In this document: positions 9,905-61,109 of the stretch, in pieces
Numbering within the stretch: the stretch's first letter is position 1
Layout: every line of letters starts with the position of its first letter
Source: a virus
Lineage: Duplodnaviria; Caudoviricetes
DNA length: 64,000 nt
Reading direction: 5' to 3' (one strand)
IMG/VR virus record: IMGVR_UViG_3300010356_000549
Span: 11,107 to 75,106 of that record
Program-made: the position numbers and the translations under genes
Notes under the pieces: generated by a model
What the model saw: only the letters and a program-made list of their open reading frames with translations
Databases searched by the model: none
Told to the model about the DNA's origin: nothing

Positions 9905-10600
9905 ATGAAGCAGGACTCTAAAAATATCTTAATTGAAAACCCACACACCGGGAATGCGTCTTTTGGTGATGCTCTCAAGCTCCTAAACGTGGAAGCGTTG
10001 CCTAAGTATGCTACTCCAGATGAGGCGCGTAAACACTTCCCCGATTGGGAGAAGCTGAGGAAAGTGGTCTTAATCCGCGACCCTCTGGAGCGGTTCGAGA
10101 GTGCGGCGACGGCCTATCTCCTAGGCCGGGATTCCCAGGGGGATCAAGTGGAGGATGAGGAACTGAGCAAGGCACTCACCCCTGAGAAGCGGGGGGAAGT
10201 GATCCTGCGTCGACTCTTAGCCGGGAAGGGGGAGACGCCTGTGGGCCTGCTACCCCAAAGCAACTGGCTAACCTGTAAGATGGACTTGATCCTCGCCACC
10301 CATGACATAGCCAGTTTTTTCAACGTTGTTGACGACCTTTCCCAAGCAACACGCAGCAATACCTTTGCTCACAATCCCGAGGTGCGGGACTTTTGGGTGA
10401 GGGCACGCAGCGACGATAACCGGGCGCTCGTTCGCGAGGTATATGCGAAGGATTACCAGACTTTCTCCACACTCCCGGTGTGGTCCCCGGACCCAAGCAA
10501 GGTCCGTTTCCTGACCGGGTATTGCCCGGACTGCCCCCTTCAGGATGGAAATTTGCAAGATCGTGCAAAATTGGAGCCAGTCAGGAAGCGTAAAAATTAA
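9905..10600 (+). CDS. Sulfotransferase family (Sulfotransfer_2-like) protein with a degenerate 5'-PSB loop
   Basis: ENPHTGNAS (canonical form has P-K-T-G/A), LIRDPLERFES (3'-PB motif), LLPQSNWL, VREVYAKDY..F. Confidence 0.65.
   Translation: MKQDSKNILIENPHTGNASFGDALKLLNVEALPKYATPDEARKHFPDWEKLRKVVLIRDPLERFESAATAYLLGRDSQGDQVEDEELSKALTPEKRGEVILRRLLAGKGETPVGLLPQSNWLTCKMDLILATHDIASFFNVVDDLSQATRSNTFAHNPEVRDFWVRARSDDNRALVREVYAKDYQTFSTLPVWSPDPSKVRFLTGYCPDCPLQDGNLQDRAKLEPVRKRKN
10552..10569 (-). repeat. 18-bp dispersed motif, copy 1 (TTTGCACGATCTTGCAAA, reverse orientation)
   Basis: + strand TTTGCAAGATCGTGCAAA, inside the 3' end of the sulfotransferase ORF, 36 nt before the portal ATG. Confidence 0.95.
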
Positions 10601-10605
10601 GTATC

Positions 10606-12012
10606 ATGTTTGAACAGTTAAAATCAGCCTTTTTGCGTCGCAGAGGTGAGCCTGACTTGAGCCGGGCGACTCCATCAGAGCTTGCCATGTTGTCCCGCAT
10701 AGGTAACCGAAAAGAGCGGGAGTTCATTGAGTCTAAGCTGGGCATCCCGCTTCACAAATTCAGTGACTTTTCCTCCTACCTATCCACTGGACATAAGCTG
10801 GTTTGGGCATCTTATCGTTCATGCAAGCTAATTGCGGCGGCCATGCTATCGGCTGATTTTAAGATCATATCAGTAGGGGGTCAGAGCCAATACACGCTGG
10901 TTCAGCTTCCCCCGCCACCTGTAAAGGGGGAGACTGACCCCATCTACTTCTCATCGGGCGGCTTTATCAAAAACCCCAACCCTTATGACTCATGGGAGGA
11001 GTTCGTGGAGATGACTGTTTTCCACCTGGAGTTGACAGGTAATGCCTATTGGCTCAAGGATGAGATTGACCTAAGTGGGCGGCCTTCTGCCTTGTACCCT
11101 TTGTTACCCCACAACATGGGGCCAGTGCCGGGCAAGAAAGAAAAGGTGGCCAGCTATGAATACAAGGTCAACGGCATTATCAAATCGTTCAAGCCTGAGG
11201 AGATCATCCACCTGAAAACCACAAACCCGGTCAACCTAATGCTGGGCATGGGGTCAATTGAGCCGTCCCAGCCGCTGTACAACCAGTTCATCAACAAGAA
11301 CAATCTGGATGAGAAGTTTGTGGAGAACGGTGCCCAAATATCCGGGGTACTGTCCCGCGAGGATGCCGAAGGGCTGGACTCGGAGGACTGGGACCGCTTC
11401 AAGAAAAAATTCAACTTGGATTATGCGGGCAAGGCCAACGCCGGGAAGACGGCTTTCCTTAACGGGAAGTGGTCATATCACCGCCTTGGTATGAACATGG
11501 CCGAGATGCAGGCGTTGGAACGGGAGAAGTGGACGGTTGAGCAAATCTTCATGAACCATGGTGTGCCCCTTTCGGTGGCCGGGATTCAGGGGGCGGCTAA
11601 CTACGCCACCGCTTCGCAAGATGAACGAAACTTCCGCAAATACAAGGTTGTGCCTCTGCTCGACATGATCGTGGGCAAGATCAACTCAGAGGGCTTTATC
11701 CAAGCTAATGATCCCAACTACACGCTGGTGTATGAAATGTCCGGTCTCATTGACGTGGATCAGATCGTCAAGGAGATGCTACCTTTGCTCAAGGCTGGAG
11801 TCATTACTCGCAACGAGCTTAGGGAAAAGATCAATATGCCGATCATCACAGACAACCCAATGATGGACGAGTTGACGGTGGAAATGACCACAATCCCACT
11901 GGCATTGGCCGGGGTGGGTAATCCTGCTGATTCCGATCTTGCCCCCAAGGAGACGCCTAAGGCGACAAAAGGAGGAGTGAAGAAAAAACGCTATGTCAAA
12001 AACATTCGTTAG
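10606..12012 (+). CDS. Portal protein (HK97/lambda-like Phage_portal family)
   Basis: LELTGNAYWL, LYPLLPHNM, F.PEEIIHLK, GMGSIE, ENGAQISGVL, GVITRNELREK. Confidence 0.93.
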   Translation: MFEQLKSAFLRRRGEPDLSRATPSELAMLSRIGNRKEREFIESKLGIPLHKFSDFSSYLSTGHKLVWASYRSCKLIAAAMLSADFKIISVGGQSQYTLVQLPPPPVKGETDPIYFSSGGFIKNPNPYDSWEEFVEMTVFHLELTGNAYWLKDEIDLSGRPSALYPLLPHNMGPVPGKKEKVASYEYKVNGIIKSFKPEEIIHLKTTNPVNLMLGMGSIEPSQPLYNQFINKNNLDEKFVENGAQISGVLSREDAEGLDSEDWDRFKKKFNLDYAGKANAGKTAFLNGKWSYHRLGMNMAEMQALEREKWTVEQIFMNHGVPLSVAGIQGAANYATASQDERNFRKYKVVPLLDMIVGKINSEGFIQANDPNYTLVYEMSGLIDVDQIVKEMLPLLKAGVITRNELREKINMPIITDNPMMDELTVEMTTIPLALAGVGNPADSDLAPKETPKATKGGVKKKRYVKNIR

Positions 12013-17131: not shown

Positions 17132-17138
17132 AAAGGGC

Positions 17139-17167
17139 TTTACTTTTTACTAAGTCGCCTTTAGTAT
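17139..17167 (+). promoter_or_regulatory. Sigma70-like promoter, predicted leaderless transcript
   Basis: TTTACT-17-TAGTAT; ATG 17174 is 6 nt after the -10. Confidence 0.7.
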
Positions 17168-17173
17168 TTAAGC

Positions 17174-17443
17174 ATGACCATTATACGTTGCAAACTAACA
17201 GGGGTGGAAATAGCCTTGGGGGGCACTACTCCCACCGTCCATACCCAATCCGAGTATCCCGCCTCAACACAGGCAGCCTATGAAACGTGCCTGCTTGCTC
17301 TCAACCTACTCAGCCCGGAACTGGCGGGGTGGATGGACTGCGAAGGGCTCCTCGCCGACTACCTCATTGAGAAATTTGATTTTGAGATGGTTTCAAGGCC
17401 GGAGCAAGAGCTGGATGCGGCAGGTCGTCAGCGGGTTAATTAG
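17174..17443 (+). CDS. Small acidic hypothetical protein, candidate immunity protein for the MuF peptidase
   Basis: 89 aa, own promoter, immediately downstream of the MuF fusion; the function call is positional only. Confidence 0.6.
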   Translation: MTIIRCKLTGVEIALGGTTPTVHTQSEYPASTQAAYETCLLALNLLSPELAGWMDCEGLLADYLIEKFDFEMVSRPEQELDAAGRQRVN

Positions 17444-17447
17444 AAAA

Positions 17448-17465
17448 TTTGCACGATCTTGCAAA
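17448..17465 (+). repeat. 18-bp dispersed motif, copy 2
   Basis: Exact TTTGCACGATCTTGCAAA, intergenic, before the prohead protease. Confidence 0.95.
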
Positions 17466-20186: not shown

Positions 20187-20222
20187 AGCCCGCTCTGGAT
20201 ACGTCCAGGGCGGGCTTTTTTT
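20187..20222 (+). terminator. Rho-independent terminator after the capsid gene
   Basis: 13-bp stem AGCCCGCTCTGGA / TCCAGGGCGGGCT, UACG (UNCG) loop, T-tract. Confidence 0.9.
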
Positions 20223-20237
20223 GCACGATCTTGCAAA
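20220..20237 (+). repeat. 18-bp dispersed motif, copy 3
   Basis: Exact; overlaps the terminator T-tract and ends 11 nt upstream of the next -35. Confidence 0.95.
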
Positions 20238-20248: not shown

Positions 20249-20277
20249 TTGCGTATTAGCGCAGGCGGCTGTATCAT
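20249..20277 (+). promoter_or_regulatory. Sigma70-like promoter
   Basis: TTGCGT-17-TATCAT; ATG at 20290. Confidence 0.65.
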
Positions 20278-29212: not shown

Positions 29213-29400
29213 GCGAGGAAGTTGTAGGATTAACAGGTCCGAGGGAGTTCGAAGAGGAAAGGGCGACCGAGTTGCGCCTCAACCCCAAGTTTCCCTACTA
29301 TGCGCAGCCCTTCCCCTTTGACACGGTGATAGACTCCAAAAATTTGCACGATCTTGCAAATCCTGAGGAGGAACAAGGCATTGACAGCAATCAACTTTAA
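29209..29400 (+). CDS. Small hypothetical protein
   Basis: ATGA coupling; 63 aa; contains a motif copy. Confidence 0.5.
   Translation: MSEEVVGLTGPREFEEERATELRLNPKFPYYAQPFPFDTVIDSKNLHDLANPEEEQGIDSNQL
29343..29360 (+). repeat. 18-bp dispersed motif, copy 4
   Basis: Exact, inside the small ORF, 57 nt before the ATG of the 903-aa tail gene. Confidence 0.95.
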
Positions 29401-29417
29401 AACGACTGTAAAAATAA

Positions 29418-32130: not shown

Positions 32131-34476
32131 ATGAGCTACTTAGACGCATTTGCACAAGAGGCCGTCGACGCAATTAACGTCGCACCTGAAATTGACCTCC
32201 TCACCTCCTTACTGGATGGCAAGGTGGGGGAGGAAATATCCTATCAGATGAAGGCTAGATACAAGCCTGAATATTGGTCAGCGGTTGGGCTACCTGAGGG
32301 GTGGGAGATTAATGCCTCCACCGGGCTAATCACTGGGGTGACAGAGGTGGCGGGTCTGTATAAGGCCATTATCACCGTTAGTAATTTTCAAAAGTTAGTC
32401 TTCACCTACTCAACCAATCGCGTTATCATTGGATCGCGGGCCTTGGTTACCGGGGAGATAGTTGGTGTTTACACGACGGGAACGCTCCCGTCGCCCTTAA
32501 ACGCCAGCACACTTTATGAAGTGTATGCTCCCGACACCCTGATTGGCGGGGGCGCGAACACGGACAGCGTGTATCTGGCACCTGTAGGGACAAGCAATTA
32601 CATCACCCTGACCGGGGGGACGGGCAGTTATTACCTAGTCAAACGGAGGATTGACGAGGCAGCTTTGATTATCCCAATCCTGGGAGACGCCATTAGTTCT
32701 GTTTCTGATGATTCCTTCACCCTACTGATGGACGTTGATATTGACTCCGGGGTGGTCACCTTCCCCACGATAAGTGTTAGCGATTGGAGTCCAGCGGCAG
32801 CGGAACAAAGGACCGATGGCTTGAAAGCTCCCAAGTTAGCCGTAAAGCGGGGGGACCGATTCCCGGTGGCAATAGGCTTCACGAGAGCGAATCAGCTACA
32901 AGACTTGCCCTTGGGGTCTGTCCTCATCGGCTCCAAGCAATACGCGCCTGAGCCATTGGTTCCCCTGAGCGATAGTTCGTTCACCAAAATAGGCTCTGGT
33001 AAGTCAACCAGATATGAGGTTGTCCTCAGTATCGCAGAGGCAGCGTGGTTGGGTATCCTCTCTGACGAGGAGGAGGATGAAGGCACCTACGTCAATTCCA
33101 TTTGTGAGGTGCAATACAGTACGGGGGGTGCCGCTACATGGGCGACAGTCAGTCAATTAATCGTGCATGATGCGCAGGCCATAAACCTATCCGTGGCCGA
33201 GCCAGTTTCTCAGGCGTTCGAGTTTGATGAACTGCCAGACAATGCGGATGAGCCTATTGACTTCCAGTTGACGCTAAATTTATCCGCTACCGGAAACGGG
33301 GTCACCACGGGCACATCAATAACCAAGCCGCTGACGGGATCACGAAATGGGGGTGTGTGGACTTTTGTGGATCGTGATCAGGATGGTTTATCTGATATAA
33401 CGACCGTGACAACGGGATACAGCGGCTCTCTTACCTTTACGTTTAGTAGATACAAATTCCCTGCTCTACAACCAATAGACATGTCAAATGGATCGACGTA
33501 CGGCGGTGTACTTGACCAAAAAATTTCGTATGTGGCTCCCGGCATCCCTTCATACCCTACTGCAATCCCAGGGTATGAATCAATCAGGTTTTACAATGCC
33601 TCTAATACCCTCCTTAAAACCATTCAAATAGGGGATGCGGACTGGGCAGCTAAGGTAATCATCCCGTGGGCGAATAATGGGACCACACTAACGGAGACAA
33701 AGACGATTACATACCTGCTGGGGGCGACTACCTCAACCATTACTCTGACCAGTGGGATGTCTTTGCTAGACTTGTGGGTAGAGCATATCGCTATACAGAC
33801 TGACCAGAGGGTAAAATTTCCAGAATGCTCTTTTAGTGGTCAGAATTTAGTACTGAAGTTTGGCCCAAGATGGGGCACACGACCAAGCCCATTCCGGGCT
33901 ACCGTGAACGCAGTAGCATACAACGCCACCTATGCCTACAATAACATGACTAATGATGAGGTTTTTCACGAAAGTCTCCGGGAGGTAATCGAAAAAATAA
34001 CTAATGCTTTGTATGGTTCCGTTTGGTCATCCGCTGCCAGACCAAAATTAGTTAGCGCAGGTATTTTTACGCCTAGTACAATTTCCATCCTGACGCAGAC
34101 CAACCTGAGTGCATTTGCTCAGTCAGTGGCTTACCTAAAAGACGAGTCCGATAATGTATATGTTTTCAATAAGACACCCTTTACGACGACCGTGGTGACA
34201 CCGTTTACTCCGCTGAATGTATCATCGGACACGATTCTAGCAGGTGGTTGGAAGGCTAATTTACGTTATTCGGGGATCGACTCTGTTTCGGCTTCGGAGG
34301 CTACAGTTAGCTCCCAGGTCGTTGCTTCAACCCTTATAGGGGGGTATGAACCCACGTATGGCGAGATTGTCGTTTCAGCGCAGTTGACGGCTCCCGCAAA
34401 GGAGGAGCAGACGGGTTACACCAAAACCAGCGAATCCTTTGTCCTTAGGGTCGAGGATGACCATATCGAAAATTAA
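32131..34476 (+). CDS. Tail fibre/receptor-binding protein with an Ig-like (He_PIG-type) domain
   Basis: WSAVGLPEGWEINASTGLITG...AGLYKAIITVSN; the AT-richer, Thr/Ser/Tyr-rich distal half is consistent with a variable receptor-binding region. Confidence 0.7.
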   Translation: MSYLDAFAQEAVDAINVAPEIDLLTSLLDGKVGEEISYQMKARYKPEYWSAVGLPEGWEINASTGLITGVTEVAGLYKAIITVSNFQKLVFTYSTNRVIIGSRALVTGEIVGVYTTGTLPSPLNASTLYEVYAPDTLIGGGANTDSVYLAPVGTSNYITLTGGTGSYYLVKRRIDEAALIIPILGDAISSVSDDSFTLLMDVDIDSGVVTFPTISVSDWSPAAAEQRTDGLKAPKLAVKRGDRFPVAIGFTRANQLQDLPLGSVLIGSKQYAPEPLVPLSDSSFTKIGSGKSTRYEVVLSIAEAAWLGILSDEEEDEGTYVNSICEVQYSTGGAATWATVSQLIVHDAQAINLSVAEPVSQAFEFDELPDNADEPIDFQLTLNLSATGNGVTTGTSITKPLTGSRNGGVWTFVDRDQDGLSDITTVTTGYSGSLTFTFSRYKFPALQPIDMSNGSTYGGVLDQKISYVAPGIPSYPTAIPGYESIRFYNASNTLLKTIQIGDADWAAKVIIPWANNGTTLTETKTITYLLGATTSTITLTSGMSLLDLWVEHIAIQTDQRVKFPECSFSGQNLVLKFGPRWGTRPSPFRATVNAVAYNATYAYNNMTNDEVFHESLREVIEKITNALYGSVWSSAARPKLVSAGIFTPSTISILTQTNLSAFAQSVAYLKDESDNVYVFNKTPFTTTVVTPFTPLNVSSDTILAGGWKANLRYSGIDSVSASEATVSSQVVASTLIGGYEPTYGEIVVSAQLTAPAKEEQTGYTKTSESFVLRVEDDHIEN

Positions 34477-34480
34477 CATA

Positions 34481-35245
34481 ATGGCTACCGTAAAAGGCTC
34501 AACAATAATCAGGGATCGTGAGAACGCGAATGCTCGCGCCAACGCGAATTTTAACGCGGGCAATTTCAATGCCGAGACACAGGCACGTATTGAAGGCAAT
34601 GCAATTGGGGGTGTACGTGGCCCCAATGGTGGGTGGGTTTACCCTAATAGCAGACCACTTGGCACGGGAAACATAGTTGCCACAGTAAATGGCTCTCCAA
34701 ATGTAGGGGGAGCCACCTCTGGAGGTGGAAGCGGAGGAAGTAGGAGCAGCAACCTAAGCGGAAAATCTTACAACGACCTTGTGAACACGGATATAGGTGC
34801 TCTGGTTGAGCCAGATGATGTGTTTAGCTTTGATGTGGATGCGGCGGGCAATCTGGTGAATGCCAAATTGGAGCGTGAAGGAGTAGCAGGGACTGGTATG
34901 AATTTCCCCACGGCTCTCCACCTTGCGAAGACGACCGGGTTTTTGGTGGGGAGGTCATCATGGCAAACGGCTGACTCCGGGAAGTGGCTTTACTACTACG
35001 GGGTGGCGTGGTTCCTCCTACTCATGGACGGGTCGGAGCTGGTAACGTCCGAGGGGGTCACGCGGGAGGTTGCCCCCAACTTTACCTATGGGGATGCCCT
35101 ATCCGAGGACTGGATTCTGCCGCCGGGTGCGGGCGCTGCTGGCTATCTACAATTCGAGCCGTTCGAAAGCACGATTAATGGTAAAACGCAAAAATACAAC
35201 CCACTAAGCCCACCCACTAGGATTGGCTATGGAATAACTTTATGA
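34481..35245 (+). CDS. Gly/Asn-rich protein with a C-terminal DUF2829 (Tad2-like) domain (start revised to ATG 34481)
   Basis: MNFPTALHLAKTTGFLVGRSSW...KWL...APNFTYGDALSEDW matches the DUF2829 pattern MNF..AL..K.G..V.R..W...P...D.LA.DW. Confidence 0.6.
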   Translation: MATVKGSTIIRDRENANARANANFNAGNFNAETQARIEGNAIGGVRGPNGGWVYPNSRPLGTGNIVATVNGSPNVGGATSGGGSGGSRSSNLSGKSYNDLVNTDIGALVEPDDVFSFDVDAAGNLVNAKLEREGVAGTGMNFPTALHLAKTTGFLVGRSSWQTADSGKWLYYYGVAWFLLLMDGSELVTSEGVTREVAPNFTYGDALSEDWILPPGAGAAGYLQFEPFESTINGKTQKYNPLSPPTRIGYGITL

Positions 35246-36294
35246 GCAGGAAGAGAGTGAAGAAAAAAACGTTTTGCCTAGTGGTCCCTTGGATGGCACT
35301 AGGAGGCGCGGATAGGTGCGGCCTTGATGTGCTCTCCTACTACAAGTCGAAGGGGTATCGGGCAGTGGTAATAGCTACCAAACACAATCCCCTTACCCAC
35401 CATCAAACGCAGGCTTTTGCTACAGTAGCTGACGCAATTTACACCGAGGAGGATATGCTTGCTACCATACAGGAGGAGGCTCCCGATATCGTGCTGATTA
35501 ATAATAGTCATCACGCTTACCAATACTTGGCCGGGATAAAGAAGGTGGCTCCAGCGTGTAAGTTATTCGCCCTAATGCACATGCTCTTACCCCACCCATG
35601 GGATTTTGAAGAGTATCTAAAAAAGGGCTTCGCCAAGGTGGATGGGGTCATCACCGTATCCAACAAGCTGAAAGCCGACCTTGCGGAGAAGGGGATTCGG
35701 AAGAAGGTTTATCCGCTCCATTGGTTCGGCTTTAAGGGAGATGGCCTCTCTTTCTCAAGGGAGTTGTCAAATCGGATTCTGTGCCCTATGAGGCTGGAGA
35801 CCCAGAAGCGTCCCGAGTTCATCCCTCTGGTGGCGGAGAAGATGCGGGCGCTCATACCCACGGCCAAGTTCATCATAACGGGCTCGGGGTATATGGAGGA
35901 TCGTGTCAAGGAGGTGGCCGTTGAGAGGGGTGTTATGGATATGCTGGAGTTCACCGGGGAGATACCACTGGATGAAATGGAGGCGCAATACACCAAGGCT
36001 GGGGCTGTCCTTTGCCCTTCCAGAGATGAGGGGATTCCTCTCATCTATTATGAGGCAATGCAAAGGGGTGTCCCGCTCGCGGCATCAAAGGTGGGGGCAG
36101 TGGGTGAAGTGGTCCCTCCAGAGTATCTTATTGAGTTTGAGGCGAGCGACGAGGCATACCTATATGCGGAGCTGCTGGCGAAGCACTTGATGAAATACAC
36201 CATCGAGCATGTGGTAAATACAAGTATCCGGGTTTCCAGGGACTTCTCACATGGTAAATGGGCAGAGAGGCTGGCGGCTATCATGGGGAGATGA
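35242..36294 (+). CDS. Glycosyltransferase, GT-B fold (GT4-like)
   Basis: GGADR, VITVSNKL, R....KRPE, FTGEI...YTKA...LCPSRDEGIPL...EAMQRGVP...KVGAVGEV (ExxxxxxxE). Confidence 0.92.
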   Translation: MSRKRVKKKTFCLVVPWMALGGADRCGLDVLSYYKSKGYRAVVIATKHNPLTHHQTQAFATVADAIYTEEDMLATIQEEAPDIVLINNSHHAYQYLAGIKKVAPACKLFALMHMLLPHPWDFEEYLKKGFAKVDGVITVSNKLKADLAEKGIRKKVYPLHWFGFKGDGLSFSRELSNRILCPMRLETQKRPEFIPLVAEKMRALIPTAKFIITGSGYMEDRVKEVAVERGVMDMLEFTGEIPLDEMEAQYTKAGAVLCPSRDEGIPLIYYEAMQRGVPLAASKVGAVGEVVPPEYLIEFEASDEAYLYAELLAKHLMKYTIEHVVNTSIRVSRDFSHGKWAERLAAIMGR

Positions 36295-37562
36295 TCACGA
36301 TAAGCAATGGCCGAATCCTATGGATTCTCAACCCAAAAACCGGGACACGCTCCGTGGTCGCTTCAAAGTTATTTGCGGGGTATGCGGAGAACTACATCAC
36401 CGGGGTGGAGCACCCTTGCTTTAAAAATCTCTACAAGGTGGCGGTGGTTAGAAACCCCTTTGATAGACTCGTTTCCTGCTTCTTTAACAAGGTTGATGTA
36501 GGAAAAGGATACGGGGGCAAAGACAGCGGGGCGATTCCTGAGCATGTCAGGCATAGCTTCTCAGCCTTTGTTCATTGGCTGGCGGAGGGGGACAACCTAA
36601 GGAGTGACGTTCACTGGCTACCTCAATCCGAGTATCTGCCCCCAGCACATCAGATTGACCACCTAATCAGGTTTGAGAGCTTGCGGAGGGGATTCGCCGA
36701 GGTGTGCAAAGTAGCAGGGCAGCCCTGCGAGTTGCCTCTTGACAACAACTCCTATCACGACCATTATTCCACCTATTTTGATGATGAGCTTGTGCAGGTG
36801 GCGAGCAGGCTATACGGTGAGGACTTACAACGATTTGGGTACAGTTTTAATGATATGAGCAAGGCAAGAATTGGGTGGGATAGATACGTCGAAAGCATGG
36901 TTGCACTTGGCCTGGTGCCGGGGGATGAATGGGCTAACCGGGAAAGGTGGGAGAGCATCTACAACGGTTTCCTGTCCAAACAAGCCGTAAAGGGGGAGGT
37001 CAGGAAATTTGTGGAGATTGGCCAGGGCTCCGGCAAATACACCCTGATGGCTCTGGCCGACCACAAGCCAGAGCTGGCGATCTGCTGTGACGTGTCCAAA
37101 CGTTTTTTGGACTATTGCGAGGAGAGAATCTCTAAGACTATGCCGGAGGCAACCGTACGCTATGAGCTACTGCCCCCAAAGAACAGATATGCGCTCATGG
37201 ACAGCGTCCTAAAGCATACCGGGCCGGAGACGGTCGACCTTGTGTTTTCCATTGATGTGATGGTTCATGTGGAGGCTCCCCTAATTCTCAACTACCTGAT
37301 GAATGCAAATAGTCTGCTCAGGCTCGGGGGGACCGTGGTAATGCAGGTGGCCAACGGTAGCACATCTTCAGGCGTTGAAAGGATGCTGGAGGACGTGGAG
37401 CCGATTCATGGGCCTGACGAGCATTTTGAGGGCAAGTTCCAGTGGGTTACCCCGTCCCTCATTACGCGGATGGCCACTCGGGCCGGGCTTGAGGTAGAAC
37501 TGATGACGTGTGAGAACGGGGTGGACCTTTACTTTTCAGCGACCAAAATAATGCACCTATGA
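36291..37562 (+). CDS. Sulfotransferase (Sulfotransfer_2-like)::class I SAM methyltransferase fusion (start revised to ATG 36291)
   Basis: NPKTGTRS, VRNPFDRLVS, HWLPQSEYL, RFESL, Y.EDLQRFGY; then VEIGQGSG, CDVS, DLVFSIDVMVH, LRLGG. Confidence 0.85.
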   Translation: MITISNGRILWILNPKTGTRSVVASKLFAGYAENYITGVEHPCFKNLYKVAVVRNPFDRLVSCFFNKVDVGKGYGGKDSGAIPEHVRHSFSAFVHWLAEGDNLRSDVHWLPQSEYLPPAHQIDHLIRFESLRRGFAEVCKVAGQPCELPLDNNSYHDHYSTYFDDELVQVASRLYGEDLQRFGYSFNDMSKARIGWDRYVESMVALGLVPGDEWANRERWESIYNGFLSKQAVKGEVRKFVEIGQGSGKYTLMALADHKPELAICCDVSKRFLDYCEERISKTMPEATVRYELLPPKNRYALMDSVLKHTGPETVDLVFSIDVMVHVEAPLILNYLMNANSLLRLGGTVVMQVANGSTSSGVERMLEDVEPIHGPDEHFEGKFQWVTPSLITRMATRAGLEVELMTCENGVDLYFSATKIMHL

Positions 37563-38236
37563 AAGCAATCGTCTATCAAGTGGACACCTACTACAACAGT
37601 CCCCACGTTACCGGGAGGCATTCCCATCACTACTATAACATGTGCGAATACCTGCTGCCGCAAACGCAGCAATGGTGTAAGGATATGGGGCACGCCTTTG
37701 AGCTGATTAGGCCGGACGTGGTGACCTGCACGAGGAATGAGGTATGGCCGGAGACCATGCGCCACACCATCAACACCATCCCTAGGTTCGCCGAGAGCGA
37801 GTATGATTACATGCTCTTCCTGGACTTTGACATCTACGTGCCGGAGAGGTATGAGTTCCCCTTCCGGGAGGGCGTGATTCAGGCACCCTCTTACCCGCGC
37901 AATGAAAGGTATGATTTTCTCAAGGCTAAGGTCAAGGAGATGACCGGGCTGGAGACCACCTCCGACTCCTACCTATTTTGTGCTGTGGCCATGAGCAAGG
38001 ACGTGGCACGGCGGCTCAACGTCCCTATGCTGACCAATCCGATGCCCAGTTACAATGGCACAGTTTACAGCAACGATGAGCTGACCCTCCTTTACCATGC
38101 CGATAGTAAGGGGGTGCCCTTTGAGGATATCAAGGGGATAGTCAAGCACTCCGGGTGGGGAAGGGGCAACCACATTACCCACTTTGGAGGGGACGGGAAG
38201 GATGTAATTCGGTCGTGGTTCAGCGGAGGTATTTGA
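37559..38236 (+). CDS. Putative GT-A fold glycosyltransferase
   Basis: YDYMLFLDFDIYV (DxD), NDELTL, ITHFGG. Confidence 0.6.
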   Translation: MKAIVYQVDTYYNSPHVTGRHSHHYYNMCEYLLPQTQQWCKDMGHAFELIRPDVVTCTRNEVWPETMRHTINTIPRFAESEYDYMLFLDFDIYVPERYEFPFREGVIQAPSYPRNERYDFLKAKVKEMTGLETTSDSYLFCAVAMSKDVARRLNVPMLTNPMPSYNGTVYSNDELTLLYHADSKGVPFEDIKGIVKHSGWGRGNHITHFGGDGKDVIRSWFSGGI

Positions 38237-39110: not shown

Positions 39111-39128
39111 TTTGCACGATCTTGCAAA
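39111..39128 (+). repeat. 18-bp dispersed motif, copy 5
   Basis: Exact; 8 nt before the endolysin ATG 39137. Confidence 0.95.
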
Positions 39129-43468: not shown

Positions 43469-43675
43469 ATGGGATCTAAACAAATCAAAATCAGCATCTC
43501 GCCCATCGGCGAGGTCAAGCTACTGACAGAGGGTTTCGCGGGGATGGGGTGTTTGGCGGCAGCCAAGCCCATTCTGGACGCCTTAAGCGACCACACCAAG
43601 CCTCCCGAGATTGAAATCACGGGGGAAGGCTATGCCACGGAAACTGAATCGGAGCTGGAGTGCCAAGTAGGATGA
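43469..43675 (+). CDS. DUF2997-like small protein
   Basis: KQIKISISPIGEVKL.TEGF.G.GCL.A.K.I.DAL. Confidence 0.75.
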   Translation: MGSKQIKISISPIGEVKLLTEGFAGMGCLAAAKPILDALSDHTKPPEIEITGEGYATETESELECQVG

Positions 43676-43998
43676 AGCAAGTCATCTCCATTGCGCCGGA
43701 CGGCTCCATGCACGCACTAAAGCAATGCAATGCGCTTGACCTGCGGGCTTTTGGCCGGGCGGATATTCGCCGGGCTACCCTGATTGAGTGGGATGCGGAC
43801 CTACAGGCATGGTTCATCCGCTGGTGCGACCCTAGGCTGGGGGAAGGCGTGTGGAAGCACGAGGATGGCCGGGTCATCACCTTCCAGGAGTATGAGGAGG
43901 CAGTGGCCCATGAGGTGGCCACCATCCAAACGATGCAGAGAGCTGGGAAACTGGCGGCTCTGGGGGCCATCCTCCATTGTGTTCAGGCCGAAGCCTGA
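43672..43998 (+). CDS. Conserved small protein of the Ycf46 neighbourhood (start ATG 43672)
   Basis: MKQVISIAPDG....LDLRAFG...IRRAT.IEW...W. Confidence 0.65.
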   Translation: MKQVISIAPDGSMHALKQCNALDLRAFGRADIRRATLIEWDADLQAWFIRWCDPRLGEGVWKHEDGRVITFQEYEEAVAHEVATIQTMQRAGKLAALGAILHCVQAEA

Positions 43999-44117: not shown

Positions 44118-45287
44118 ATGTCTAGCAAATCTTTGATTACTTATCGAAATATTCATCGCCTGCTGGTTAGGGAGTGGGCACCTCACTTGACACATGTGGA
44201 ATATCGGGCATTACATTTTATATTGGATCGCACACTTGGATGGAACAAAACATGGGAAAAAATAACCCTCAAACAAGCCGTGGAGGGCATAGAAAACAAC
44301 GGGGTAATATACGCTTCCCCCTTCTCGCCAAACTCGGCCAGCGGAGCCAGCAAAGCCCTGAAAGGTTTACTGGAGAAGGGTGTGATCGAGGCTCAAGCCG
44401 GGCCGAACCGGACCAACAAATACAGAATAAACGAACAGTGGCAACCTATGAAAATATCAAAAAGGCGGGCGGCGGAGGGGAAAAAAGAGTACCTAGAGGA
44501 GGTAATCAGAGTACCTAATTTAGGTACGCCGGGAGTACCTAATTTAGGTACGCGAAGAAGTACAAAAGAAAGAGGAGAAACTGATAAGAGTTCCGATGCC
44601 GGGGGCATCGGTGATCTGGAGGAGCAATTCGCTCTGATAGCTGAAACCAGAAAGGGGAAGCTCAAGGGTAAGGCAAAGGAGGGGAAAGCGCTAAGGCCGG
44701 ATGGAACGGGATTCCGGCCTTTTCAAAAGAACGTCCCTGCCCTTTGGTTCACCCTGCTCTCCGAGCATCACCCTGAGGCACCCCGTTCCCTATCTCCCGT
44801 CTCTGCCTCCATCCTTTACAATTACTGGGGGTCATGGACTCAGGCCAGAGACTCCGGGGAGTTCGGGGAGTTCCTGGAGTGGGTGTTCAAGCGCTGGCAC
44901 AGCCTAGGGGCGATTGCCTTTCACTGGATGGGCGCTTTTCCCACCTACCCGGACGTGAGGATCATCACAGCCGTTTATCACCGGATGACCATTGAGGAGT
45001 GGTATCGCAATCAGGTGGCCTTCGAGGATTTAACTCACTTGACCCCGGACGAGCGCAGGAAGCGCTTCATGGAACGAGAATGGGGGATGGACGCCGGGGA
45101 AGCCGAGCGCAGGGTGGCCAAGATACGGGGTGAGCGGGACCAATTGGCCGAAGTGGAGCGCGAGAGGGCGCGGCTAAGGGTGGAGGTTGAAAGATTCAGG
45201 CAGGAGAAGGCTGCGGCATCCCGAGGCCGGGAAAGAACAAGGCGCAACGCGCCACTACAATTAATCGACGACGAACATGATGAATAA
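44118..45287 (+). CDS. Replication initiator, lambda O-like N-terminal wHTH
   Basis: LTHVEYRALHFILDRTLGWNK..EKITLKQ; internal iterons; upstream of loader-like and dnaB genes. Confidence 0.8.
   Translation: MSSKSLITYRNIHRLLVREWAPHLTHVEYRALHFILDRTLGWNKTWEKITLKQAVEGIENNGVIYASPFSPNSASGASKALKGLLEKGVIEAQAGPNRTNKYRINEQWQPMKISKRRAAEGKKEYLEEVIRVPNLGTPGVPNLGTRRSTKERGETDKSSDAGGIGDLEEQFALIAETRKGKLKGKAKEGKALRPDGTGFRPFQKNVPALWFTLLSEHHPEAPRSLSPVSASILYNYWGSWTQARDSGEFGEFLEWVFKRWHSLGAIAFHWMGAFPTYPDVRIITAVYHRMTIEEWYRNQVAFEDLTHLTPDERRKRFMEREWGMDAGEAERRVAKIRGERDQLAEVERERARLRVEVERFRQEKAAASRGRERTRRNAPLQLIDDEHDE
44487..44570. repeat. Iterons/candidate replication origin inside the initiator gene
   Basis: GAGTACCTAATTTAGGTACGC at 44509-44529 and 44533-44553, each containing the palindrome GTACCTAA-T-TTAGGTAC; partial GAGTACCTA at 44487; A-rich flanks. 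Confidence 0.75.
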
Positions 45288-45837
45288 AGACCAAGACGAG
45301 ATCAAGAAAATGCTTAGGGCGGCTGGAGTCCCTGCTTCCTATTGCGTGCCCAAAAAGTGGACAGAGCTGGGAGATGGAGCCGTGATCATATCAAACTGGC
45401 TCAAGAACGACGGGCTGGCGGCTTTGCAGGATGGCAAGGTGATGCTGCTGGAAGTGCCTCTTACACCCTCGATGAAGCCAGATAAGGCAATCGAGCAGGC
45501 CGAGAACATAAGGTGGACCTACAACTTATGTCACGCCTATGCTATACTCAACAAGCTGCCTACATCAAGGTTTGATGCCTGGGAGCTGCGGGAGGACGTT
45601 AAGTGGGAGGCACTGGAAGAGTCGTCCATAATTTTTGTGGAGGGAGTGTATTCGAGGGGCAGCACAGGGTTTACCCCAGAACAGCGTAGAACCATTGAGT
45701 TCTTTCTCAAGACCGCACTTGAGCGGAATATTGGGCTGGTGATTTTGCAAGATCGTGCAAATTCAGGCAATTCGTGGGAGGGCTTCTCCCAATCATTCGA
45801 GGCATTAATCCGGTCCCGCATCGCTATCTTGGTATGA
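45277..45837 (+). CDS. Possible degenerate helicase loader (DnaC-like position; no Walker A visible)
   Basis: Between initiator and dnaB; an IIFVEGV strand resembles a Walker B region. Confidence 0.4.
   Translation: MMNKDQDEIKKMLRAAGVPASYCVPKKWTELGDGAVIISNWLKNDGLAALQDGKVMLLEVPLTPSMKPDKAIEQAENIRWTYNLCHAYAILNKLPTSRFDAWELREDVKWEALEESSIIFVEGVYSRGSTGFTPEQRRTIEFFLKTALERNIGLVILQDRANSGNSWEGFSQSFEALIRSRIAILV
45744..45761 (-). repeat. 18-bp dispersed motif, copy 6 (reverse)
   Basis: Exact, in coding sequence, 72 nt before the dnaB ATG. Confidence 0.95.
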
Positions 45838-47341: not shown

Positions 47342-47359
47342 TTTGCACGATTTTGCAAA
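47342..47359 (+). repeat. 18-bp dispersed motif, variant copy 7 (1 mismatch)
   Basis: TTTGCACGATTTTGCAAA, intergenic, before ATG 47371. Confidence 0.9.
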
Positions 47360-50921: not shown

Positions 50922-50949
50922 TTGCAAAGGGTAAAGGATAAGTTAGACT
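50922..50949 (+). promoter_or_regulatory. Strong sigma70-like promoter with A-tract
   Basis: AAAAATAATAC-TTGCAA-16-TAGACT. Confidence 0.65.
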
Positions 50950-50999
50950 AGGGGAAGCTAGTCCTAAGGACTCAATATAACAACAAATAAAAATCACAC

Positions 51000-53587: not shown

Positions 53588-53605
53588 TTTGCACTATCGT
53601 GCAAA
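53588..53605. repeat. 18-bp dispersed motif, variant copy 8 (2 mismatches)
   Basis: TTTGCACTATCGTGCAAA, between the SSB stop and the helicase start. Confidence 0.85.
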
Positions 53606-53624
53606 ATACAAACAGACAAACACG

Positions 53625-55118
53625 ATGCCAGTCCTAAGCTCAATGGTATGGTTCTCTGACTCCGAGGTGATTGAACATCGGATCAGGTATGAACATTACA
53701 AGGTGAAACCGAAAAGGGGTATCCCAACCGACCCTGAGCCTGAGCCTATCCCCTTATGGGTGCGGCGGGGCGCTTGTATCGGTTTACCCGTCGAGCTAGG
53801 GCTGGCAACTTGTGATAGGCTGGGATTAACGGTCATCAATCAACTGACCAAAGGGCACAAGATTCCGGTGCGCAAGATGCCCGACCCTCTACACCCTGCT
53901 GCCTCGCCGGGGCAGGGCCAATTTTTTAATGATCTGATGGGCGCGGCTAAAGACCACTTCTCCCTCTTGGTGGAGGCACCTACGGGGTCAGGCAAAACCG
54001 TGGCAGCCCTCTACATGATAGGCCAGCTCAAGCAATCAGCCGTGATCGTGGTCCCTTCCCGGTCATTAGCGGTTCAATGGATCAAGGAAGCCCGAACACA
54101 CCTGGGGCTGCTTCCAGAGGAGATAGGGCTGGTTGGGGACGGTGAGGAGGATTGGGAGGGAAAACACTTGGTCGTGGTCATCCTCCATAACCTTTTCCAG
54201 CGCGTGTTCCCCATGGACTTTTATGCCATGTTTGGAGTCGCAGTCTGGGATGAGTGCCACAACCTAGGGGCGCGGGAGTTCAGCAAAGTGATGCGGTGCT
54301 TCCCTGCGGAATACAAGGTTGGCCTGTCCGCTACACCTGACCGACGAGACAACTGCGAGGAGGTGTTCATGGCCTATTTTGGCCCAGTGCGGCTAAGGAG
54401 CATTCAGGCGGCTCTCCCCGTCAAGGTCACCGTCATACCTTTCCCCCTAGCACCTATTCCAGGAGGCTTGGCGCATTCCACGAACCCAACCAGGGCGCTC
54501 CAATTCATCTCCCGGCACGAGAAGCGCAACCAGCTACTGACTGGACTGATTACTTCCCTATTCACCGGGGGGCGGCGCATTTTGGTTTTGTGCAAGCATA
54601 TCGACCATGCGGAGGGGCTGCGACAAGCCGTAGTCGACAGAGGCGTGCCGGAAGAGGCGTGCGGCTTGTTCATAGGGCAACGGACGGCCATCTCGAAGGA
54701 CAAGAAACGGCTGGCTGCCCTTTTGTTGCTTTTCAACCATTCCCCTACCCTAGCGGTCACGTATGGATGGTTTATGCTGCTCCAAAGGGTAAAGGTCAAG
54801 GGGGAGGAGCTGGAGGCGGCTAAGGCCAAGACCATAATCTTTGCCACCTACGCCATGATCAAGGAAGGCGTGGATATACCCGCTCTTGATGCAGGCGTGG
54901 AGGCTTTACCCGTAGCGGATGCTCGCCAAGCTATTGGGAGGGTGCGCAGACCCTTACCGGGCAAGCCTATGCCTCTTTGGTTTTCCATAGCGGACAAGGC
55001 ACCTAGCGGGCGCGGAATGGATTTTTTGTATGGCTTCACTCGGGCGCGATTGAAGGGAATTGAAGACACTGAGAACGTCACCATCGAACACCTGAGCGCA
55101 ACACCGAAGTATGATTGA
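53625..55118 (+). CDS. Superfamily 2 helicase (UvsW/Res-like) (start likely ATG 53625)
   Basis: APTGSGKT, WDECH, GLSATP.R.D, EGVDIP.LD, QAIGRVRR. Confidence 0.92.
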   Translation: MPVLSSMVWFSDSEVIEHRIRYEHYKVKPKRGIPTDPEPEPIPLWVRRGACIGLPVELGLATCDRLGLTVINQLTKGHKIPVRKMPDPLHPAASPGQGQFFNDLMGAAKDHFSLLVEAPTGSGKTVAALYMIGQLKQSAVIVVPSRSLAVQWIKEARTHLGLLPEEIGLVGDGEEDWEGKHLVVVILHNLFQRVFPMDFYAMFGVAVWDECHNLGAREFSKVMRCFPAEYKVGLSATPDRRDNCEEVFMAYFGPVRLRSIQAALPVKVTVIPFPLAPIPGGLAHSTNPTRALQFISRHEKRNQLLTGLITSLFTGGRRILVLCKHIDHAEGLRQAVVDRGVPEEACGLFIGQRTAISKDKKRLAALLLLFNHSPTLAVTYGWFMLLQRVKVKGEELEAAKAKTIIFATYAMIKEGVDIPALDAGVEALPVADARQAIGRVRRPLPGKPMPLWFSIADKAPSGRGMDFLYGFTRARLKGIEDTENVTIEHLSATPKYD

Positions 55119-55665
55119 AGAAAACAAGCCAAAAAGGAAACGGGGGCGACCGCCTAGCGGGACACCCAAAAGGGTGCTGACACCGGAAGACATAGCTGCT
55201 AAAAAAGCCTATGCGGTGCAGTATCACAGAAACGTCAGGAAACCACGGATGCAACACCCTATTTACAAGGCGAGGCTGGCGATGCAGGAGAGGGAACGCT
55301 ACAAAAAGCGCAACCCCAACTTCAAGCCTCGCGAATATGGCAAATATGCGGGCAAGGCCGTCAGGTTCTCGGAGAGTCGCCCTGTAAACGGCATTAGCAT
55401 GTTGGTGATGACTTACTTAGGAGCGGCCAAGACACTAAACATCAGATTGTCCAGTCTACTAACGTGGCTAAAGCAGGGCAAGTTTCCGGGGGCTACCCTT
55501 ACAACGGATGAAGGAGAGAAGGTGTGGCACATCGAGGAGATAGATGCCATGGCAACGGTGCTCCAGAAACGACTTGAGGGCCGGGGTCTGTTTATGTCCA
55601 GCTACACCGACGTGATTGAAGAACTATTTGAGGTAATAACAGAACTAAACAATGAAGAAAAGTAA
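55111..55665 (+). CDS. Putative DNA-binding protein (AT-hook-like KRGRPP plus HTH)
   Basis: KRKRGRPP; GAAKTLNIRLSSLLTWLKQGKFP. Confidence 0.55.
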   Translation: MIEENKPKRKRGRPPSGTPKRVLTPEDIAAKKAYAVQYHRNVRKPRMQHPIYKARLAMQERERYKKRNPNFKPREYGKYAGKAVRFSESRPVNGISMLVMTYLGAAKTLNIRLSSLLTWLKQGKFPGATLTTDEGEKVWHIEEIDAMATVLQKRLEGRGLFMSSYTDVIEELFEVITELNNEEK

Positions 55666-56002: not shown

Positions 56003-56004
56003 TT

Positions 56005-57162: not shown

Positions 57163-57180
57163 TTTGCAAGATCGTGCAAA
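57163..57180 (-). repeat. 18-bp dispersed motif, copy 9 (reverse); exactly fills the intergenic gap
   Basis: TAA(57160-62)-TTTGCAAGATCGTGCAAA-ATG(57181). Confidence 0.95.
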
Positions 57181-59032: not shown

Positions 59033-59040
59033 AAAAAGAT

Positions 59041-59069
59041 TTGCAAAGAGTCACGACTAGATTTAAACT
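59041..59069 (+). promoter_or_regulatory. Strong sigma70-like promoter with A-tract
   Basis: AAAAAAAGAT-TTGCAA-17-TAAACT. Confidence 0.7.
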
Positions 59070-59114
59070 CAAAACAGTTAATTAAAACTACAAAACAAAA
59101 TCAATAACAATAAC

Positions 59115-60224
59115 ATGACTAATACCATGAAATCAGTGAAGAAAGCAGAGACCATCAAGAACGGCACCGCAGTAGTGTTCGTCAAATACACCGGGGACGC
59201 CGGGGAACTGAAAGAGGGCACCGCTCTGACTATCACATCGTTTGATTCCCGCAAGGGTCTGTATGACGTGGTGAGCGAAGACGGGATCGTGGACTCCCTC
59301 TTTGTGGATGAGTTCGAGGTGGTTGGGGCCGAGAAGGCTGAGAAACCCAAAACCAAAGTGGTCAAAACCGAGGCTCTCAAGAAAGCCGAGGCGGCCAAAG
59401 CCAAGGCGGCCAAGACTGAGGCACCTAAGGCAGCCAAGCCGGAGAAAATCAACGGGTCACACGTTGACAAGTCACCCGTCGTCGAGAAACCAGCCAAGGC
59501 AGCCAAAGAGGCACCCGTCAAGGCAGCCAAGGTGGAAAAGCCAGCCAAGGCCGAGAAGCCAACCCTGGAGCTGCCTGCCCTAGTCAAGACCAAGGGAGTT
59601 ACTGCGGCTATCAAGGCGGCAGCCGGGAGCGACTTGGGGGCAGCTATTGCTCTGGCAAACGAAAAGGAGCGGACCATCTTCATCCTGGGGGGTGTGCTGG
59701 CGGTCATCAAGCGCAACGGTTCTTTCCAGGCATTGAAGAACAGCGGAGGTAAGGAGTTTTATGAGGCCGGACTCAAGGGCTTCAACCTTTACGTGGAGGA
59801 GGAGCTGGGGATCAAAGCACGCATGGCCGATTACTACGTCTCCATGTATGAGGTATTCAGCCCTCTCGCAACGGAGGAGCAAATCGGGAAAATCGGTTGG
59901 AGTAAACTCCGGGAGCTGCTGCCTTTGCGCAAGCTGCTCACCGCCGACAACATCGAGGAGCTGCTCGACTACACTCGGGAGAACCCAGTGAAGGCTGTTC
60001 AGGAGAAGGTCACCAAGATGCTTAAGGACAATCCGGGCGCGGCTCATGGCTTGGCTGGCCAGGGCACCAAGATGGTGACCTACAAGCTGTCAGTTTTCGA
60101 CGATCAGGCCACCGTGGTGCAGGAGGCATTTGACCTTGCCCGCAACACGATTGGGTCAGAGGCTACTGAGGCGGAATGCTTTGTTCATATCTTGACCCAG
60201 TGGAGTTTGTCTCAAGCCAACTAA
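59115..60224 (+). CDS. Putative DNA-binding protein: beta-rich N-domain, histone H1-like Lys/Ala linker, DUF3102-like helical domain
   Basis: AKAKAAKTEAPKAAKPEK...; LGGVL..IK...FNLYVEEELGIKARMA.YY..MYEVF...GWSKLRELL. Confidence 0.6.
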   Translation: MTNTMKSVKKAETIKNGTAVVFVKYTGDAGELKEGTALTITSFDSRKGLYDVVSEDGIVDSLFVDEFEVVGAEKAEKPKTKVVKTEALKKAEAAKAKAAKTEAPKAAKPEKINGSHVDKSPVVEKPAKAAKEAPVKAAKVEKPAKAEKPTLELPALVKTKGVTAAIKAAAGSDLGAAIALANEKERTIFILGGVLAVIKRNGSFQALKNSGGKEFYEAGLKGFNLYVEEELGIKARMADYYVSMYEVFSPLATEEQIGKIGWSKLRELLPLRKLLTADNIEELLDYTRENPVKAVQEKVTKMLKDNPGAAHGLAGQGTKMVTYKLSVFDDQATVVQEAFDLARNTIGSEATEAECFVHILTQWSLSQAN

Positions 60225-60227
60225 GCC

Positions 60228-61109
60228 ATGGCCGGGGAAATTACCATCCACACCGACGGGAGCTGCAACAATAATCCAAGCGCAGCCAAGTCGGGTGGAT
60301 GGGCCTTTACTGCGGAGCATAAGGGCAAGATAGCAATCCGATGGGGCTGGGCGGAGCACACAACTTCCAGCGCCATGGAGCTTATGGCTGCGCTTTATGC
60401 GCTGAGATTTATCCCTGAGGGGACCACTCCAATCATCCTGATAACGGACAGCCAATACCTAAAAAATGCTATGACTGAATGGAGGCTAGGATGGGCCAGA
60501 CAGGGGTGGAAAAGTGCAACGGGGCGACCGCTCAAAAACTCGGCCATCATGTGGGACTTGCATGTGATAGCGGAGGGCCACCTAAAGACAAGGAGACTGG
60601 AGTTTCGGTGGGTTAAGGGGCACGCGGGCCACGATGGCAATGAGAAAGTGGACGGCTTGGCGGGCCGTGCGAGGACTGAGAAATCAACCAACTGGACGAG
60701 CAAAGACCATCGCTTTAGAGTGGGCAATTTGCACGATCTTGCAAAATCTGAGAACATGATAAAAGTTATTCAACAAGACAATGAGGGCATTAAGCGGGCT
60801 GATACCACACCCACACGGAGATTGACATGTTGCTGCTGCGGCAATGAGACGCGAGGGAGGCAGTGGTGGAACCGAGACACGGGCTATGGCCTATGTGTGG
60901 AGTGTATTGATGCCAATGGGGTGTCCAACGTGCCGATGGGAAGAGTGGCCGACTCCTTTGGAGTGCGGGGAGTCCATTGGGGCTTGACCGTGGAGCCGAT
61001 TGCGGTGCATCCTGATTGGGTGCGAGTCAAGGCGGGATACGACGTGCTGGATGAAGCGGGCAAGGCGGCTTTTGACGCTGCCCTGAATCGGGAAGGCGGT
61101 GAAGCATGA
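60228..61109 (+). CDS. rnhA: Ribonuclease HI with fused C-terminal Cys-cluster domain
   Basis: HTDGSC, GGWA, MELMA, TDSQY, WVKGHAG..GNEKVD.LA; C-terminal CCCCG...RQWWNRDTGYGLC..C. Confidence 0.9.
   Translation: MAGEITIHTDGSCNNNPSAAKSGGWAFTAEHKGKIAIRWGWAEHTTSSAMELMAALYALRFIPEGTTPIILITDSQYLKNAMTEWRLGWARQGWKSATGRPLKNSAIMWDLHVIAEGHLKTRRLEFRWVKGHAGHDGNEKVDGLAGRARTEKSTNWTSKDHRFRVGNLHDLAKSENMIKVIQQDNEGIKRADTTPTRRLTCCCCGNETRGRQWWNRDTGYGLCVECIDANGVSNVPMGRVADSFGVRGVHWGLTVEPIAVHPDWVRVKAGYDVLDEAGKAAFDAALNREGGEA
60728..60745 (+). repeat. 18-bp dispersed motif, copy 10
   Basis: Exact, at the RNase H/C-domain junction, 10 nt before an in-frame ATG (60756). Confidence 0.95.

Follow-up and report, generated by a model that had tools for sequence, protein, structure and literature searches.

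A dispersed 18-bp palindrome of an activated-sludge phage as a predicted protein-binding site, with lineage-specific counterparts in related phages

It has been reported that Cluster O mycobacteriophages carry a 17-bp dyad repeat, TGTTCGG-NNN-CCGAACA, in 34 copies (Cresawn et al. 2015, PMC4351075). The 7-bp arms of this repeat are invariant around a free centre, its copies are mostly intergenic and follow no orientation rule, and a dimeric binder has been suspected (PMC4351075). Here we describe a repeat, the 18-mer TTTGCACGATCTTGCAAA, in a window of 64,000 nucleotides (nt) comprising bases 11107-75106 of the 75,106-bp IMG/VR virus record IMGVR_UViG_3300010356_000549 (G0; positions are those of the window unless "record" is stated). 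The Cluster O dyad repeat is the closest described case, and the G0 site adds to this known kind of repeat. Both are dispersed inverted repeats with conserved arms and tens of copies (14 in the 75 kb of the whole G0 record, 8-44 in whole-record relatives); both lie mostly in intergenic DNA or at the 5' ends of genes, with some copies inside genes and no consistent orientation. As in Cluster O, the sequence is not a repeat of bacterial or host genomes: in 596 Gb of bacterial genomes the G0 18-mer gave 18 single hits, about 17 being expected by chance, and no genome held more than one copy. The two differ in that G0 belongs to another phage clade with another host and its repeat is unrelated in sequence, that the G0 site is 18 bp long with a near-invariant centre, and that each related lineage here has its own palindrome whereas the Cluster O phages share one. 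We predict that the 18-mer is a double-stranded DNA binding site for a sequence-specific, probably dimeric phage-encoded protein, and that its copies form a dispersed, operator-like network across the genome; we give this reading a probability of about one half.

Several other systems are functional analogues, not families to which this element belongs. The stoperators of L5 and Cluster A phages, described by Brown et al. in 1997, are reportedly asymmetric 13-mers in one orientation, and their binder is a temperate phage's prophage repressor. A protein bound at a stoperator blocks elongating RNA polymerase. Like stoperators, the G0 site is a short sequence with many copies in narrow gaps between genes all over the genome, at a distance from promoters; unlike them, it is palindromic and occurs in both orientations (10:4, that is, 4/14 inverted in G0), and its orthologue on L013, a short contig of the G0 lineage, is inverted. 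G0 has its own replisome, no integrase or repressor was found among the Pfam hits of its proteins, and no prophage relative of its capsid was found in 185,579 species genomes; the phage looks lytic. The CIR elements of the Streptomyces phage phiC31 and the C1 operators of phage P1 are conserved intergenic copies spread over a genome and served by one phage regulator. The G0 copies are similarly highly conserved and operator-like across intergenic regions, but phiC31 and P1 are temperate with known repressors, and none was identified in G0. KorB-OB of the IncP plasmid RK2 and RacA-ram of Bacillus subtilis are cases in which one protein serves a dozen or more dispersed short palindromic sites. 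As in RacA, a MerR-type winged helix is found in a candidate binder of G0 (55111-55665; the resemblance to RacA is weak, E 0.086), but KorB and RacA act on a plasmid or a chromosome and not on a phage, and a ParB-family role is unsupported here. Finally, the G0 site is unlike the PeSL-type mobile promoter cassettes of T4-like phages in that its conservation ends 1-2 nt outside the 18-mer, although one relative, G001, does have about 12 longer palindrome-plus-promoter modules.

As the original prediction stated, the 18-mer is present exactly at eight places in the window, five on the plus strand and three on the minus strand; none is expected by chance, and 100 shuffles gave 0 matches. Allowing up to 3 mismatches added just two places, the variants already proposed at 47342 (1 mismatch) and 53588 (2 mismatches), and the pattern TTGCA-N6-TGCAA found the same ten places and no others. 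The 11 kb upstream of the window hold four more copies (record 3010, 5097 and 10365, exact; record 8859, 1 mismatch). Both sites spanned by an independent 4.9-kb metagenome contig from another sample, 98.6% identical to the record, are present there. Flanks of AA...A(A/T), extending the site to about 22 bp, had been proposed; conservation stops after about 1-2 A/T bases on each side. In place of a 6-bp asymmetric core between 6-bp arms we find an 18-bp palindrome in which eight of the nine base pairs are complementary, the single exception being C at position 7 and T at position 12. A search of the literature in full text with motif variants gave no match. The ten copies of the window are as follows.

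10552..10569, minus strand: exact copy, in the 3' end of open reading frame (ORF) 9905-10600, with the portal ATG (10606) 36 nt downstream
17448..17465, plus strand: exact copy, 4 nt past the end of ORF 17174-17443 (stop codon) and ahead of the prohead protease gene
20220..20237, plus strand: exact copy, post-capsid, between a terminator and a candidate promoter
29343..29360, plus strand: exact copy, upstream of a 903-aa tail-region gene
39111..39128, plus strand: exact copy; the M15 endolysin reading frame has its ATG 8 nt downstream
45744..45761, minus strand: exact copy, in the 3' end of ORF 45277-45837, with the start of the DnaB-like helicase 12 nt downstream
47342..47359, plus strand: variant TTTGCACGATTTTGCAAA, 3 nt past a stop and 11 nt before an ATG
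53588..53605, no strand given: variant TTTGCACTATCGTGCAAA, the only one whose asymmetric pair is C...G; TATC replaces GATC, and no CGATCG arises
57163..57180, minus strand: exact copy, filling the gap between the RecA and resolvase genes
60728..60745, plus strand: exact copy, inside ORF 60228-61109, past the part that encodes RNase H, with an in-frame ATG 10 nt downstream

Of the G0 copies, 86% are found no more than 60 nt from a gene boundary, compared with 20% for random places, and the copies are neither regularly spaced nor clustered. The gene contexts named earlier were recovered for the portal, prohead protease, post-capsid gene, endolysin, DnaB, SF2 helicase and resolvase; a "major tail" assignment is not established for the 903-aa gene. 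The copy at 57163 fills the RecA-resolvase gap exactly, as had been noted (TAA, 18-mer, ATG), and in the relatives G016 and G017 the same two genes overlap (ATGA) and leave no gap. The copy at 53588 begins 2 nt past a stop, upstream of an operon that encodes the SF2 helicase, a 184-aa protein, a 116-aa protein and RecA. Four copies had been placed inside coding sequence; three of these are clear (10552, 45744 and 60728), and the fourth (29343) lies in a doubtful 63-aa ORF. Taken together with the comparison of relatives below, these results show that the 18-mer is genuine, restricted to the phage lineage, and kept by strong purifying selection on its half-sites.

A capsid profile search returned 43 related IMG/VR loci, and ten whole or large records were compared with G0. 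Nine of the ten share its replication module, and each of these has its own abundant palindrome of the same design, TTG...CAA, 15-18 bp long. Lineage-specific palindromes were found in 12 related records or contigs, including the following.

G001: TTTGCAAC-W-GTTGCAAA, about 36 copies
G006: TTGCAC-NNN(N)-GTGCAA, 11 copies
G007: TTGCAA-NNN-TTGCAA, 28 copies
G008: CTGCAAC-W-GTTGCAG, 30 copies
G009: TTTGAAAA-S-TTTTCAAA, 44 copies
G010: TTTGACCG-W-CGGTCAAA, 19 copies
G012: TTGAAC-NNN-GTTCAA, 8 copies
G013: TTGCACG-S or MK-CGTGCAA, 13 copies
G015: TTGCAC-NNNN-GTGCAA, 9 copies

Three further partial relatives have versions of their own. Within the G0 lineage, L013 carries the identical 18-mer upstream of the protease gene, inverted relative to the gene, and a second short contig (L023, relative G2) carries its own palindrome, ATTGCAAATTTTTGCAAA, after the capsid gene, with the same arms and a centre of A/T only. 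A looser scan of G016 and G017 revealed a hybrid palindrome, TTGAAC-NNN-GTGCAA; its copies (G016, contig L147, 4556 and 9162; G017, contigs L145/L146, 2680, 18191 and 22796) all run in the same direction relative to genes (5/5). Enrichment within 60 nt of gene boundaries was seen in eight of the nine relatives tested (45-100% of copies) and was absent from G007 (0.17 versus 0.20 for random places). The tenth record, G011, has only structural genes in common with G0 and no palindrome family; about 20 copies of a direct word, ACCCGAAACGA / CCGAACCCGAA, were seen in it. The clade thus offers about a dozen genomes, each with a different palindrome of one design, which amounts to a natural covariation series of site and binder.

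The pair G013 and G015 shows where selection acts. These genomes are collinear and 66-77% identical in DNA, and 8 of the 9 G015 sites have a positional counterpart in G013. In these eight pairs the arm positions are identical throughout (96/96), whereas the 40-nt flanks are 62% and 70% identical and the centre differs in every pair, with a change of length in two; it is thus the two arms that are under selection. Twelve of the G001 copies share an identical change in one arm only (TTTGAAAC...GTTGCAAA), the common variant would place an A.G mismatch in the middle of a stem, and no compensated arm changes were found among the degenerate copies. The half-sites evolve independently of each other. 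As RNA, the main form of the G0 element folds at -4.3 to -6.3 kcal/mol (z -0.5 to -2.2), mostly no better than shuffled sequence; it has no consistent T run of the kind that marks an intrinsic terminator, and separate terminators stand beside some copies. The independent evolution of the half-sites, the weakness of the hairpins and the use of both orientations point to recognition of the element as duplex DNA, by a protein with two reading heads, and not as a base-paired structure. The system is valuable for its clade-wide series of different palindromes and for a short, testable list of binders, and at orthologous sites the arms are strictly conserved and the centres free.

The one asymmetric pair of the G0 site has to be seen against a strong depletion of many 6-bp palindromes in the whole record, as in these examples.

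CCCGGG: observed 0, expected 34
CAGCTG: observed 0, expected 24.5
CGGCCG: observed 0, expected 24
GGATCC: observed 0, expected 9.8
GTGCAC: observed 1, expected 9
CGATCG: observed 2, expected 11.8
AGATCT: observed 0, expected 5.1

Position 7 of the half-site is C or A, and with a GATC centre the symmetric forms would be CGATCG or AGATCT, whereas the mixed form CGATCT is not a palindrome. The form with C7 and T12 would be the only way to keep a GATC centre with C or A beside it and to create neither depleted hexamer. Because the symmetric forms create depleted 6-bp palindromes, the invariant C7/T12 asymmetry appears better explained by their avoidance than as a signal of direction; none of the even-length centres of G013 and G015 is self-complementary either. 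The case would illustrate that avoiding restriction sites can alter an operator in its details and give it the look of a "directional core". We also observed that TCCGGA, GAGCTC, CACGTG, CCGCGG, GACGTC, AAGCTT and GGCGCC are absent from the record (10-34 expected for these and for CCCGGG, CAGCTG, CGGCCG and GGATCC), and that this avoidance is extreme despite an encoded DNA hypermodification pathway.

The positions of the sites fall into two classes. In class P, a sigma70-type promoter follows closely on the palindrome, and the palindrome itself often comes directly after a terminator. This is seen in G001, where a palindrome ends 6-28 nt upstream of 12 of the 23 promoter modules (chance 1.8%), with a fixed 6-9 nt between palindrome and -35 box at 10 promoters. 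These modules (contigs L018-L022, the whole record) read TTGACnAyGAAWC, N about 9, yAAGyT, then 6-9 nt and ATG; many of the genes that follow open with ATG AAA TCC ACC (MKST), and the module transcripts look like leaderless early transcripts. The class P arrangement recurs in G006, G009, G010, G013 and G015, with -35 boxes of the CTTGCAAA- or GTTGCG-type. In G0 it is represented by the copies at 20220 and 29343 and by two near record 3010 and 5097 beside candidate leftward promoters, and the signals next to the first two are these.

20187..20216, plus strand: strong intrinsic terminator after the major capsid gene, abutting the copy at 20220
20249..20277, plus strand: candidate sigma70-type promoter TTGCGT-N17-TATCAT, 11 nt beyond the copy, with ATG 20290 another 12 nt on
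29381..29409, plus strand: candidate promoter TTGACA-N17-GACTGT, followed by 8 nt and ATG 29418

The first of these candidate promoters has the layout seen in G013 and G015, and the second has the same build as the 23 modules of G001; scans with the sigma70 consensus gave no more sites than in shuffles. Class I, the majority, fills the gap from a stop codon to the next ATG, the RecA-resolvase copy being the extreme case. At the class P minority, between the end of one transcription unit and the next -35 box, a bound protein would modulate the promoter; at class I sites it may act as a roadblock or insulator against read-through, in the manner of a stoperator.

Which protein binds is a separate question. 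The operator of a genome-wide regulon, one of the readings in the original prediction, is the best-supported reading in general terms, but the binders named for it, a MarR-like protein and a host CRP/FNR-type factor, are poorly supported. The MarR-like gene (1228-1509) is confined to G0 and has no homologue in any palindrome-bearing relative; the host factor is weighed below. The best candidate is a putative DNA-binding protein of 184 aa (55111-55665, plus strand), a tentative choice that we think more apt to prove wrong than right. It combines an AT-hook-like KRKRGRPP with a MerR-type winged helix-turn-helix, and among the conserved proteins it is the one left in which a fold for specific DNA binding is recognisable. 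Its profile matches MerR-type DNA-binding domains (CarA 2e-4, CarH 4e-4), and its AlphaFold model (predicted local distance difference test, pLDDT, 84) has weak best fold matches, all of them to the MerR family, RacA or BldC. The gene is syntenic, between helicase and RecA, in all relatives in which the region is covered except G016 and G017, and only 8 homologues, all unnamed, were found in a large protein collection. The putative recognition helix varies among relatives, and similar helices pair with similar palindromes, a correspondence that is inseparable from phylogeny in so few genomes. A bolder version would have a fast-evolving MerR-type winged-helix protein and its private palindrome serve as "genome punctuation", an orientation-independent roadblock or insulator, across a clade of one-strand, Shine-Dalgarno-poor lytic phages; we consider this quite unlikely. 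If true, such punctuation would mark off transcription units and set the timing of expression with no phage RNA polymerase involved, and would be the lytic-phage counterpart of stoperators.

Other candidate binders were rejected: the HTH_23 proteins, which have no homologues in relatives; a conserved 112-aa protein (43660-43998), which has no informative match among solved structures; and the lambda-O-like initiator, which has iterons of its own inside its gene.

44487-44553, inside initiator gene 44118-45287: lambda-O-type replication origin, with iterons GAGTACCTAATTTAGGTACGC twice exact and once degenerate

The iteron is 21 nt long and contains the palindrome GTACCTAA-T-TTAGGTAC, and homologous initiators in relatives have matching peptide repeats at the same place.

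Several observations weigh against an operator network served by a dimeric phage protein. Most sites do not lie beside a promoter, the same promoter-distance objection that Cresawn et al. raised for the Cluster O repeats (PMC4351075), and a prophage-silencing role like that of stoperators is not directly applicable to a phage that looks lytic. G016 and G017 carry palindromes and have no gene of the 55111 type, either syntenically or elsewhere in the 19.6 and 31 kb examined, so that the phyletic test does not support this candidate, barring a copy of the gene in the two thirds of these genomes that were not sampled; an argument from co-absence of gene and palindrome fails, as both genomes have the hybrid palindrome. 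Orthologous sites shift between 15 and 16 bp, and G013 alone uses both lengths, which is unexpected for a rigid dimer and tolerable for a hairpin loop. Where one half-site is imperfect, it is almost always the upstream one (12/14 in G001, 5/5 in G016 and G017), which a purely symmetric operator does not explain. A centre that varies like a loop and an orientation-biased arm would suit an element that acts in RNA, as a short intercistronic hairpin that directs processing, stabilises 3' ends or works as a translational operator at starts without a Shine-Dalgarno sequence. Many copies indeed lie directly past a stop with an ATG 0-20 nt downstream, and the phage has few Shine-Dalgarno-like sequences (26/87 ORF starts by a loose test). 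We nevertheless judge an RNA element decidedly improbable, given the weak hairpins and uncompensated arm changes described above, the 4/14 inverted copies in G0, which would have a different loop, the genuine intrinsic terminators that adjoin some copies, and the copies just upstream of promoters, which fall outside the transcripts of those promoters. A protein of the same type might instead organise the genome, using the sites for anchoring, condensation, replication or recombination, in the manner of the RacA ram sites or the Noc and ParB sites of bacteria, and finding them in gaps since coding sequence cannot hold them. The distance of most sites from promoters, the retention of some copies inside ORFs, and the place of the candidate gene in a helicase-RecA-resolvase module, with fold and profile matches that include the chromosome-anchoring RacA, would all agree with such a role. 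The fixed spacing to the -35 box in G001 suggests a link to transcription instead, the terminator-palindrome-promoter layout recurs in several genomes, and the copies show neither regular spacing nor clustering; we regard an organising role as unlikely.

The original prediction also offered crossover sites for recombination or module shuffling with a conserved directional core, and loading sites for a ParB-like protein. Deletions between repeats have occasionally been documented in Cluster O phages (PMC4351075), and at one palindrome G0 and G001 do not have the same RNase H junction. Palindrome avoidance accounts for the asymmetry, however, and together with the 10:4 orientation and the inverted L013 orthologue it removes the argument from a crossover-type core. 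The modules specific to G0 (a modification cluster at 2761-7766 and a glycosyltransferase cluster at 34439-38236) are not bounded by sites, site positions are kept between genomes that are 66-77% identical, contigs from three metagenomes bridge sites without joints (a weak point, as these are contigs only), and no site-specific recombinase gene was found, so that crossover sites are extremely unlikely. For parS-like loading sites, G0 does encode a ParB-like protein (2761-3459; PHROG 620, 3e-18) with homologues in most relatives, and KorB of plasmid RK2 is a ParB-family precedent for dispersed palindromic operators. A ParB-like gene, however, is present in the palindrome-less G011, and none was found in G013 with its 13 copies. 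The protein has no Pfam domain at E<=0.01 and no sequence match to a solved structure, hence no recognisable sequence-specific DNA-binding domain, and its gene heads the DNA-modification cluster in G0; this poorly supported reading is very improbable. The sites might also be operators of a recruited host global regulator, CRP/FNR-like, sigma54 or similar. Their 5-6-5 geometry is like that of CRP-type sites, and they resemble the sigma54 -24/-12 consensus and the lambda CII site. Since the palindrome, in both arm sequence and spacing, differs from one related phage to the next, and bacterial genomes contain the 18-mer at chance level, with no genome holding more than one copy, a host factor is hardly to be expected at all. 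In the sigma54 consensus, TGGCACG-N4-TTGCW, the GG and GC elements are exactly 10 bp apart, whereas the G0 site reads TTGCACG-N3-TTGCA, with TG in place of GG and a spacing one base short. At a CII-activated promoter, TTGC-N6-TTGC straddles the -35 box and a -10 box follows about 12 nt downstream; G0 has TTGC-N6-TTGC with no -10 box at that distance and no conserved downstream position, and relatives use N5. A MerR-type operator would have its dyad between the -35 and -10 boxes with a 19-bp spacer, and we found a -10-like hexamer at the right distance at only 5/14 copies, overlapping the start codon.

The phage itself is present in activated-sludge metagenomes and has no close relative by DNA among GenBank phages. 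None of the data sets that contain the stretch is listed as RNA; one wastewater run, presumed to be RNA, contains a few short contigs that do not reveal transcript ends. Pfam and PHROG matches identify small and large terminase, a Cpn10 co-chaperonin, portal, a 1712-aa MuF fusion, prohead protease and a capsid protein only distantly T5-like; tail genes and the M15 endolysin; the lambda-O-like initiator, DnaB, PolA, primase, SF2 helicase, RecA, Holliday-junction resolvase, exonuclease and RNase H; and a thymidine/cytosine hypermodification cluster with two TET/JBP oxygenases. Nearly all genes are on one strand. The genomes of this clade are compact, and the sites lie in what little non-coding DNA there is.

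Some smaller features of G0 were also seen. ORF 60228-61109 encodes 293 aa, of which no more than the first 150 make up the RNase H domain, and the palindrome is followed by an in-frame ATG (60756); in G001 the RNase H gene ends at the corresponding point and a palindrome and promoter come next, and the G0 frame may be two genes joined in frame or contain an internal start. At record 2930-3000 and 5000-5060, a repeated AT-rich element, GTGCAAGC-N-ATTTAAT-N-AAATTATTTTTA, adjoins the palindrome copies at 3010 and 5097. On the minus strand it reads as a UP-like stretch plus TTGCAC, and the two elements are probably leftward promoters of a small block of minus-strand genes. At 1128-1230 a terminator and an AT-rich stretch are followed by a near-consensus promoter, TTTACT-N17-TATAAT; because this ends 5 nt before the ATG of the MarR-like gene, the layout suggests a leaderless or near-leaderless mRNA. 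Two candidate strong promoters, at 50922-50950 and 59041-59069 (TTGCAAAG-N15/16-TAGACT and TAAACT, with AT-rich DNA upstream), follow the PolA and HNH genes with no palindrome nearby, and their -35 box, CTTGCAAAG, is also used by G006, G010, G013 and G015.

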